DNA of 23,815 bases. Source: a virus (taxonomy: Duplodnaviria > Heunggongvirae > Uroviricota > Caudoviricetes). The stretch lies in IMG/VR virus record IMGVR_UViG_2850796239_000008; one strand, written 5' to 3'. The position numbers and the translations under genes are program-made. How positions within the stretch are numbered: the first letter of the stretch is position 1; each line of letters starts with the position of its first letter. The notes under the pieces were generated by a model, which saw only the letters and a program-made list of their open reading frames with translations, had not been told where the DNA came from and did not search any database. Of the stretch, positions 14,595-16,044 are shown piece after piece.

Positions 14595-14681
14595 ATGGAA
14601 ATAAAACCAGAAGATGAGTTAAGCAATATCGTTTTATTTCCGGTAAAAGAGGATGACCCACGTAATCAGGTTAATTTTCTT
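14595..14681 (+). pseudogene. 5' stub of an unknown gene truncated by IS1
   Basis: ATG at 14595 with strong RBS AAAGGAGAGGAG; frame enters the IS1 terminal repeat after 29 codons. Confidence 0.4.
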
Positions 14682-14696
14682 GGTAATGACTCCAAC

Positions 14697-15200
14697 TTAC
14701 TGATAGTGTTTTATGTTCAGATAATGCCCGATGACCTTGTCATGCAGCTCCACCGATTTTGAGAACGACAGTGACTTCCGTCCCAGCCTTGCCAGATGTT
14801 GTCTCAGATTCAGATTATGTCGCTCAATGCGCTGAGTGTAACGCTTGCTGATAACGTGCAGCTTTCCCTTCAGGCGTGATTCATACAGCGGCCAGCCATC
14901 CGTCATCCATACCACGACCTCAAAGGCCGACAGCAGGCTCAGAAGACGCTCCAGTGTGGCCAGAGTGCGTTCACCGAAGACGTGCGCCACAACCGTCCTC
15001 CGTATCCTGTCATACGCGTAAAACAGCCAGCGCTGACGTGATTTAGCACCGACGTAGCCCCACTGTTCGTCCATTTCAGCGCAGACAATCACATCACTGC
15101 CCGGTTGTATGCGCGAGGTTACCGACTGCGGCCTGAGTTTTTTAAGTGACGTAAAACCGTGTTGAGGCCAACGCCCATAATGCGTGCACTGGCGCGACAT
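14697..15200 (-). CDS. insB: IS1 transposase InsB, 167 aa
   Basis: Product [16 protein letters not shown]...; A6C frameshift motif TTAAAAAAC on the minus strand at 15137-15145. Confidence 0.9.
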
Positions 15201-15394
15201 CCGACGCCATTCATGGCCATATCAATGATTTTCTGGTGCGTACCGGGCTGAGAGGCGGTGTAAGTGAACTGTAGTTGCCATGTTTTACGGCAATGAGAGC
15301 AGAGATAGCGCTGATGTCCGGCAGTGCTTTTGCCGTTACGCACCACGCCTTCAGTAGCGGAGCAGGAAGGACATCTGATGGAAATGGAAGCCAC
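15119..15394 (-). CDS. insA: IS1 protein InsA, 91 aa
   Basis: Product [40 protein letters not shown]... with a zinc-finger N-terminus. Confidence 0.9.
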
Positions 15395-15449
15395 GCAAGC
15401 ACCTTAAAATCACCATCATACACTAAATCAGTAAGTTGGCAGCATTACC

Positions 15450-16044
15450 GTCATTCGGTATTTATTACGCACGGAATGATCCGGCAGGTGCCCATCAGAA
15501 GGGTGGCAAACCTTTCTCCCCGGATTCTTTTGTTGTCGTTGAGGTGGGCGCGGAGGCTTCTGTTTCCACCGTCCCCGTGGAGCAGGGGGCTTATACCACC
15601 TTTAATAAAATCCAGAGATCGCCGGAACTGCATGTGACTTTCACTGTAGAGGGGTGGACGGCCTTTTCCGGATCCGTCCCGAACCTGACAAATTTTTCCA
15701 CCACCTCGCGGACGAATGTGCTGGAAACGCTTGAAAGGATGCGTACCACGGCAGGACTCTACGATATTGAGACGCCGGACAAGACATGGACATCCTGCGA
15801 CCTTGTGAAATATGACTACCGAATGCGAAGTAATAATGGTCCGACCTTACTGACGGTTACTGCGGTATTTCAGACCGTAATGAATACAGGAGAGGTGTCA
15901 GTGGGAAGTACGGATAAGTCGTCTCCCACGGACAACGATAAAGCAAAAGGGGCCGCATCGGTTAAAACGCAGTCAGTTACGGCGTCGGTGACACAACCGT
16001 CAGACGCTGACAGACGAAGCGCCACGAACAGGGGGATCACCTGA
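15450..16044 (+). pseudogene. 3' fragment of a phage tail/baseplate-region gene, truncated at its 5' end by IS1
   Basis: Open frame runs from inside IS1 to the stop at 16042-16044 with no own start or RBS; followed by coupled structural genes. Confidence 0.6.

Follow-up and report, generated by a model that had tools for sequence, protein, structure and literature searches.

How did the early genes of a lambdoid prophage come to lie next to the baseplate genes of a contractile tail, with one insertion sequence (IS) between them? The question is raised by a 23,815-bp stretch of tailed-phage DNA (IMG/VR record IMGVR_UViG_2850796239_000008; "the window" below means this whole stretch), in which a copy of IS1 occupies positions 14682-15449. 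An earlier note, made from the letters alone, had read this copy as the mark of a deletion joint. Comparison with related genomes leads us to the same view, and the joint probably arose through an adjacent deletion promoted by the resident IS1 copy. The loss of prophage late genes at IS1 is real and well supported; as a mode of prophage decay it is textbook and long known.

IS1 and the two interrupted genes

Three features meet at the joint:

14595-14681, plus strand: 5' remnant, codons 1-29, of a 118-amino-acid (aa) gene, with a strong ribosome-binding site (AAAGGAGAGGAGC) upstream of the start
14682-15449, minus strand: intact IS1, 768 bp, with terminal inverted repeats and InsA and InsB' domains
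15450-16044, plus strand: 3' remnant, codons 39-236, of a 236-aa Dit-like baseplate protein, without start codon and ribosome-binding site

The position and identity of the element stand as first described. Its inverted repeats are 23 nt long (14682-14704 and 15427-15449) and 87% complementary, and the whole element matches at 100% the copies annotated as IS1 family transposase in many Escherichia coli genomes. Both transposase frames are open: insA (15119-15394, minus strand, 91 aa) carries the Pfam domains Zn_ribbon_InsA and HTH_Tnp_IS1, and insB' (14697-15200, minus strand, 167 aa) carries DDE_Tnp_IS1 (E = 1.3e-74). Since the transposase reads leftwards, the IRR end (14682-14704) forms the left joint and the IRL end (15427-15449) the right joint; the left joint is fixed among the genomes compared below and the right joint is variable.

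The codons that remain, 29 of 118 on the left and 39 to 236 of 236 on the right, agree with the claim that IS1 truncates a gene with a strong ribosome-binding site and the 5' end of a tail gene. The 118-aa gene is conserved (phrog_1621) and has a weak zinc-ribbon match; no function is assigned to it. Its open reading frame (ORF), beginning at 14595, continues into IS1 and stops at 14762, which yields a 55-aa fusion. The 9 bp outside the element are AATTTTCTT on the left (14673-14681) and GTCATTCGG on the right (15450-15458). They are as unlike as had been stated, and a search for a direct repeat of 8 or 9 bp at the two IS1 ends, which would have spoken for a simple insertion, found none.

A promoter scan placed a promoter-like site for insA inside IRL, pointing inward, and predicted no outward promoter in IS1 toward the tail genes. 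On that result, IS1 was discarded as a possible driver of the remaining tail genes.

The DNA missing between the flanks

Both flanks were found in one prophage of E. coli FDAARGOS_943 (NZ_CP065615.1, locus L001). Window 12752-14681 corresponds to L001 13400-15329 at 99.1% identity, and window 15450-22048 to L001 38897-45497 at 98.9% identity. At the left site L001 reads AATTTTCTT followed directly by TATGAGCC, and at the right site CTGGCACC followed directly by GTCATTCGG. The two sites are collinear and lie 23,567 bp apart, or about 22.3 kb after discounting L001's own IS600, which bears out the supposition that the flanks are not naturally adjacent.

The content of the missing interval was taken from the annotation of the L001 record and from Pfam scans. 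On the early side it holds the rest of the 118-aa gene, DUF7167, a hok-type toxin, the late-control genes DUF1367, DUF1364 and DUF1133, and four tRNAs. The lysis, packaging and head genes comprise a holin, a lysozyme, a lysis protein, the small and large terminase, a DUF1073 portal, head morphogenesis, scaffold and capsid genes. The tail genes comprise neck proteins, a DUF3383 sheath, an E217 gp32-like tube, a tape measure with a transglycosylase domain and the first 38 codons of the Dit-like gene. The IS1 joint had been offered as the reason why lysis, terminase, capsid, portal, sheath and tube genes are lacking, and all of them do fall within this interval. The joint thus explains how early genes and a baseplate come together without lysis, packaging, head, sheath and tube genes, as a grounded remnant that makes no particles.

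The same late region, with no IS anywhere in it, is present in CFSAN029787 (L002), and the Dit-like gene is uninterrupted in L001 and L002, the two genomes whose upstream context was read. The complete prophages of both strains, which are E. coli of the enteroinvasive type, are linked to ipaH (at yebY in FDAARGOS_943, near rcsC in CFSAN029787), match the window in both halves at 98.7-99.5% nucleotide identity and share its gene order in the baseplate and fibre region. They differ from it in retaining a full late region of about 22-23.5 kb and in using another integrase and attachment site, and they end in ipaH whereas the window prophage ends in sit-like genes. L001 is itself eroding, with an IS600 in its lysozyme gene (21401-22664) and a RecE gene annotated as partial, and an IS1A lies in its fibre gene (45495-46262) with an 8-bp duplication, CAGAAATC.

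One IS1 copy with different right sides

The 55-aa fusion ORF is an exact marker for the left joint. It occurs on six contigs or assemblies whose right sides differ, and in the five where IS1 is fully readable (L003-L007) the element is identical to the window copy at 768 of 768 positions:

L005, CP026875.1: 100% identical to the window over 19.2 kb; the source of the window or a twin of it
L006, GCA_901482675.2: AATTTTCTT, IS1, AATTTTCTT, after which the 118-aa gene resumes; a simple insertion that keeps its 9-bp duplication
L003 and L004, GCA_900450475.1 and GCA_900448095.1: 10088-10875; IRL joined at window 21228, inside the tail-fibre gene
L007, GCA_900448215.1: 2037-10855; IS1 is the right arm of an 8,819-bp unit (IS1, prophage segment, IS1) between speFL and kdpE
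L008, GCA_902502025.1: a short contig that stops within IS1

The sharing of one left joint and one IS1 by genomes with differing right sides argues that the left joint is the original insertion and the right joint a later deletion. The 8-9-bp target duplication of the IS1 family, lacking around the window copy, is present around the same copy in L006; its loss from the window therefore reflects a secondary rearrangement and not a different element. Of the original target duplication one copy survives, at 14673-14681 (AATTTTCTT), and positions 15450-15458 (GTCATTCGG) are the distal endpoint of the deletion. As an internal control, three other insertions in this prophage family keep their duplications: the IS600 of the window (GTT), the IS1A of L001 (CAGAAATC) and the IS1 of L006 (AATTTTCTT). 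In L003 and L004 the deletion reaches 5.8 kb beyond the joint of the window, so that the two deletions are nested on one fixed IS1 end.

The unit in L007 is the equivalent of window 6133-15449 and carries the Rha, repressor, cro-like, YdaT, initiator, DnaB, DUF1627 and DUF977 genes. A perfect 9-bp duplication, AACCTGCCA, borders it on both sides, and many ordinary E. coli genomes contain the reconstructed empty site as uninterrupted sequence at 100% identity. These two features identify the unit as a composite transposon that moved. By the evidence of L007, the IRL end of this very IS1 copy functions as the end of a transposon.

Both halves of the window at the Rac site

The left edge of the window holds the following genes:

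1-2008, minus strand: ttcA (frameshifted near base 57), intR (532-1767) and xisR, with 99.7-99.8% identity to annotated ttcA, intR and xisR; Arm-DNA-bind_2 and Phage_integrase domains

By these identities the prophage is placed at the Rac attachment site of E. coli, and the early genes, described before as lambdoid, can be specified as Rac-type genes at the ttcA/intR site. On the right, the fibre genes of L003, L005 and L009 are followed by four genes with sitABCD-type transporter domains. L003 continues past them into uspF-, ompN- and ydbK-like genes, and L004 has the same order with the transporter genes split. We take uspF-ompN-ydbK to be the right-hand neighbourhood of Rac on the K-12 map. 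With ttcA and intR on the left and the sit-like, uspF, ompN and ydbK genes on the right, both halves of the window belong to one locus in their native order, which fits an internal deletion.

A joint made by inversion or translocation was rejected, as both halves lie at the Rac locus in native order and orientation. Such an event, if true, would place a reciprocal IS1 elsewhere, with CTGGCACCGTCATTCGG before it and AATTTTCTTTATGA after it. Searching the literature for a Rac remnant linked to sit genes brought up general papers on Rac only.

The late modules at this site are mosaic, as judged from the lambda-type late regions of L006 and of strain VL40. The VL40 prophage (L010, NZ_CM177011.1 2289690-2339600), a lambda-type siphovirus prophage, occupies this ttcA/intR site too. 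Its last genes are again phage_tail_N and DUF4376, and beyond them lie ipaHd and yecD in place of uspF and ompN. This right end points to a chromosomal rearrangement in VL40.

How the right joint formed

The sequence comparisons favour a two-step history. IS1 would have entered the 118-aa gene, just downstream of the replication genes, as a simple insertion that duplicated the 9-bp AATTTTCTT; L006 is a surviving example of that state. The IRL end of the resident copy would then have been joined to a site within the Dit-like gene, about 22-24 kb downstream, with loss of all the intervening DNA and of the right-hand copy of the duplication. The chemistry would be a transposase-catalysed intramolecular replicative transposition, in which the IS stays, one end keeps its old flank and the other gains a new one. 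The product would be a prophage incapable of cell lysis, DNA packaging and virion assembly, whose early region and adjoining sit-like transporter genes remain fixed in the chromosome.

The features of an adjacent deletion can be recognised at the locus. The IS is kept, and the left flank and IS1 are identical to those of the simple insertion in L006. The other flank comes from downstream DNA in the same orientation, as seen from the collinear L001 and from the Rac locus, and the deletions of the window and of L003/L004 are nested on a fixed IS end. In a study of experimental evolution, an IS without a duplication at a place where an IS was already present is classed as an adjacent deletion, and such deletions often extend with time (PMC11708052).

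The same joint could have been produced by RecA-dependent recombination between the resident IS1 and a second IS1 in direct orientation, inserted in the Dit-like gene and carrying a duplication of GTCATTCGG. A single IS1 would remain after the crossover, bordered on the left as the first copy was and on the right as the second was, and this is exactly the sequence observed. We consider this route possible, though on the unlikely side. The genomes holding this IS1 variant carry 5-38 copies; IS1 does enter the tail region of this prophage family, L001 having a like-oriented IS1A, with an 8-bp duplication, in its fibre gene; and recombination between IS copies is listed as a frequent cause of absent duplications (PMC11708052). 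However, no assembly turned up that has an IS1 at the distal site. Two 48-aa ORFs predicted to read through such an insertion are absent from a collection of 15 billion proteins, which is weak evidence against it. Nine of nine complete E. coli genomes with the module match the full right-flank query, which starts at the joint and so leaves the distal site itself outside. Recombination would also call for two events per endpoint, yet two endpoints are anchored on the same IS1. The IS1 copies being identical, a recombinant mosaic would be undetectable either way.

The adjacent deletion is preferred on four grounds. On parsimony, the two endpoints on one IS1 copy take one event each, as against two under recombination. 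The copy is demonstrably active, as its part in the composite transposon of L007 attests; no trace of a distal IS1 was found; and the pattern agrees with the criteria from experimental evolution (PMC11708052). The earlier note had offered a deletion or an IS1-IS1 recombination in place of a simple insertion. Both stay live; the simple-insertion, nested and composite states, all on the same IS1 copy, favour two steps and, by parsimony, an adjacent deletion.

Four observations weigh against this explanation. The first is that the sequence of the joint is the same under adjacent deletion and under recombination of direct IS1 copies, which makes the choice one of parsimony and missing intermediates.

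The second is that L006, the sole example of the simple insertion, has a lambda/VL40-type region to the right of IS1. It is therefore not the direct ancestor of the window, and L001 serves as the proxy from which the length and gene content of the lost DNA are judged. The lambda-type region of L006 also bears on an explanation in which no deletion within a single prophage took place. The IS1 of a Rac-site prophage of the L006/VL40 type would have recombined with the IS1 of a separate E217-like myovirus prophage or of incoming DNA, and a second crossover in the shared fibre and DUF4376 genes would have grafted the baseplate module on. VL40 lends this some colour: its Rac-site prophage is lambda-type and shares phage_tail_N and DUF4376, and its myovirus module sits in a separate ipaH-linked prophage. 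We nevertheless consider such a graft very unlikely. L001 holds the same early region (99% identical) and the myovirus late region as one continuous prophage. In two lineages, that of the window and that of L003/L004, the same IS1 at the Rac site is followed on its right by myovirus remnants, which adjoin the sit-like genes, uspF and ompN. The graft would still need a second IS1 plus the extra crossover.

The third observation concerns the left joint. A 37-aa protein of the same cluster, P0002 (...NFLGDAANLLI), shows that in other assemblies an IS1A-type end is joined at 14681/14682 in the opposite orientation; judged by its residues, the protein would derive only from an IS1A-type end at the very same nucleotide. 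An IS1A-type joint at the identical nucleotide marks the position as an exact hot spot for IS1, so the insertion in L006 could be independent of that in the window.

The fourth is that the exact right joint is present in one assembly only, CP026875.1. The lineage marker beside it, a frameshifted 154-aa spike fragment, likewise retrieved only CP026875.1; DNA searches across the junction in 5,426 complete E. coli genomes yielded no identical joint, only copies of IS1 placed nearby; and exact look-ups in the protein collection gave no ORF reading from IS1 into the truncated baseplate gene. A joint and a frameshifted fragment confined to one assembly, at a multicopy element, might suggest that two contigs ending in a collapsed IS1 repeat had been wrongly joined. 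We hold such an artefact to be extremely improbable: the joint lies inside a single-contig chromosome of 5.16 Mb, its two sides come from one locus and are correctly ordered and oriented, and analogous joints on the same IS1 occur in independent assemblies.

IS1 elsewhere around the 118-aa gene

In five further complete E. coli genomes (L011-L015) an IS1 lies within about 0.5 kb of the 118-aa gene, at other positions. The copies in L011 and L013 have 9-bp duplications. Those in L012, L014 and L015 have none and mark deletions or rearrangements: L014 shows a 625-bp deletion, L015 has kil joined to a point just upstream of the 118-aa gene, and L012 has an autotransporter pseudogene joined to DUF977. 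IS1 without a duplication beside a deletion is commonplace at this point of lambdoid prophages.

A more ambitious interpretation is that one IS1 copy is no passive scar but acts as a hub of prophage remodelling, anchoring an insertion, two nested deletions and a composite transposon, and that for intramolecular transposition it picks targets resembling its own ends. We consider this improbable. If true, the nested deletions would ground the prophage together with its sit-like transporter genes, and the composite transposon would have moved an immunity and replication module.

The endpoints of the two independent deletions resemble each other, GTCATTCGGTATTTATTAC (window 15450-15468) and GTCAACGGTGTGTATTAC (window 21230-21247; L003 10858-10875). 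They share GTCA(N)CGGT.T.TATTAC, and both end in TATTAC(C/G), resembling the IS1 terminus CATTACC. The similarity is equalled by about 0.3% of random 25-mers; it was noticed post hoc and is not counted as evidence.

The surviving tail module

The baseplate and fibre module of the contractile tail is listed here:

16044-23815, plus strand: surviving baseplate and fibre module, 98.7-98.9% identity to L001 38897-48010
16044-16346, plus strand: Pam3 gp18-like plug
16343-17212, plus strand: E217 gp41-like hub
17193-17869, plus strand: spike with gpV apex motif, frameshifted relative to L001
17882-18237, plus strand: wedge protein (phrog_120), frameshifted relative to L001
18234-19475, plus strand: Baseplate_J (PF04865, E = 5e-12)
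19477-20082, plus strand: DUF2612
20069-21301, plus strand: tail fibre
21304-21849, plus strand: Caudo_TAP, fibre assembly protein
21782-23113, plus strand: phage_tail_N fibre, frameshifted relative to L001 near 23032-23098
23192-23815, plus strand: DUF4376

The module had been called P2-type, and this is the part of the earlier description that has to be given up. Its proteins match the families Dit_like, Pam3_gp18, E217_GP41 and DUF2612, plus a gpV Apex motif of 23 residues only, and gave no Pfam match to GPW_gp25, Tail_P2_I or Phage_base_V. A Baseplate_J domain is present, but it is common to many contractile-tail phages and not specific to P2. In the intact relatives the sheath is DUF3383 and the tube E217_Gp32, which are not the sheath and tube of a P2-like phage. 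By its predicted domains the tail module is E217/Pam3-like and not P2-type. Among isolated phages a search for near-identical matches to the right flank found nothing, and a protein search reached distant relatives only, the nearest by the J protein, at 50-57% amino-acid identity, being Pantoea PA-1, Klebsiella ST15-VIM1phi2.1 and Edwardsiella GF-2.

Comparison with known systems

The IS1-promoted adjacent deletions of the gal region of E. coli K-12 were reportedly described by Reif & Saedler in 1975, and Turlan & Chandler are said to have attributed IS1 adjacent deletions to intramolecular replicative transposition in 1995. The window resembles the classical cases in that IS1 and one original flank are kept, the other end is joined to distant DNA on the same side, the endpoints are nested and no duplication is found. 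It differs from them as a natural case reconstructed by genome comparison, in which a role of the transposase is inferred. The deletions followed in experimental evolution (PMC11708052) likewise show a duplication-less IS beside a large deletion and stepwise extension, here the pattern from L006 through the window to L003/L004. Those deletions involve the IS3 family, as against IS1 here. The order of their states is known from time points, whereas the order of the present series is inferred and L006 is not a direct ancestor.

The prophage itself is like K-12 Rac and Rac-like prophages in its ttcA/intR/xisR attachment site and shares with them a RecE-type exonuclease, YdaE, a repressor, YdaT, DUF1627 (YdaW-like) and DUF977 (LygF-like). 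K-12 Rac has also lost its morphogenesis genes. The window differs from these prophages in DnaB-type replication instead of YdaU/YdaV, in an E217/Pam3-like contractile tail instead of a lambda-type tail, and in the joint marked by IS1. Apart from the duplication, every feature of IS1 that was tested is present, as is every tested feature of a Rac-type prophage.

The states of this one IS1 copy, insertion, nested deletions and composite transposon, form a clean natural series. They illustrate how the spread of IS elements wears down and rearranges prophages in IS-rich genomes of the E. coli/Shigella type, with cargo genes retained. For annotation, an IS with mismatched flanks is to be read as a rearrangement joint, and tools that judge prophage completeness will mis-score such loci. 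Current understanding is unchanged by this case.

Other features of the prophage

Two further features lie to the left of IS1:

2087-14537: Rac-type lambdoid early region, identified with Pfam and PHROGs; 99.1-99.5% identity to L001 and collinear with it at the protein level
11488-12751, plus strand: IS600 (IS3 family) in the DnaB-type helicase gene, with a 3-bp target duplication (GTT); the helicase is split

The early region encodes DUF1187, an AAA_24 ATPase, Gam, a RecE-like exonuclease VIII, YdaE, Rha/Ash, an HTH repressor, a cro-like protein, YdaT, an HTH_36 initiator, the DnaB-type helicase, DUF1627 and DUF977 (Ren-like). The IS600 in the helicase gene is specific to the window lineage and absent from L003, L004, L006, L007 and L008. 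With its late genes lost, its helicase interrupted by IS600 and three of its tail genes frameshifted, the prophage is a multiply disabled remnant.

At the left edge, ttcA (window 1-480) has a 1-bp deletion relative to VL40 near base 57; the frame shifts after about codon 141 and the ORF ends at window base 1. The deletion may reflect a real pseudogene or a sequencing error.

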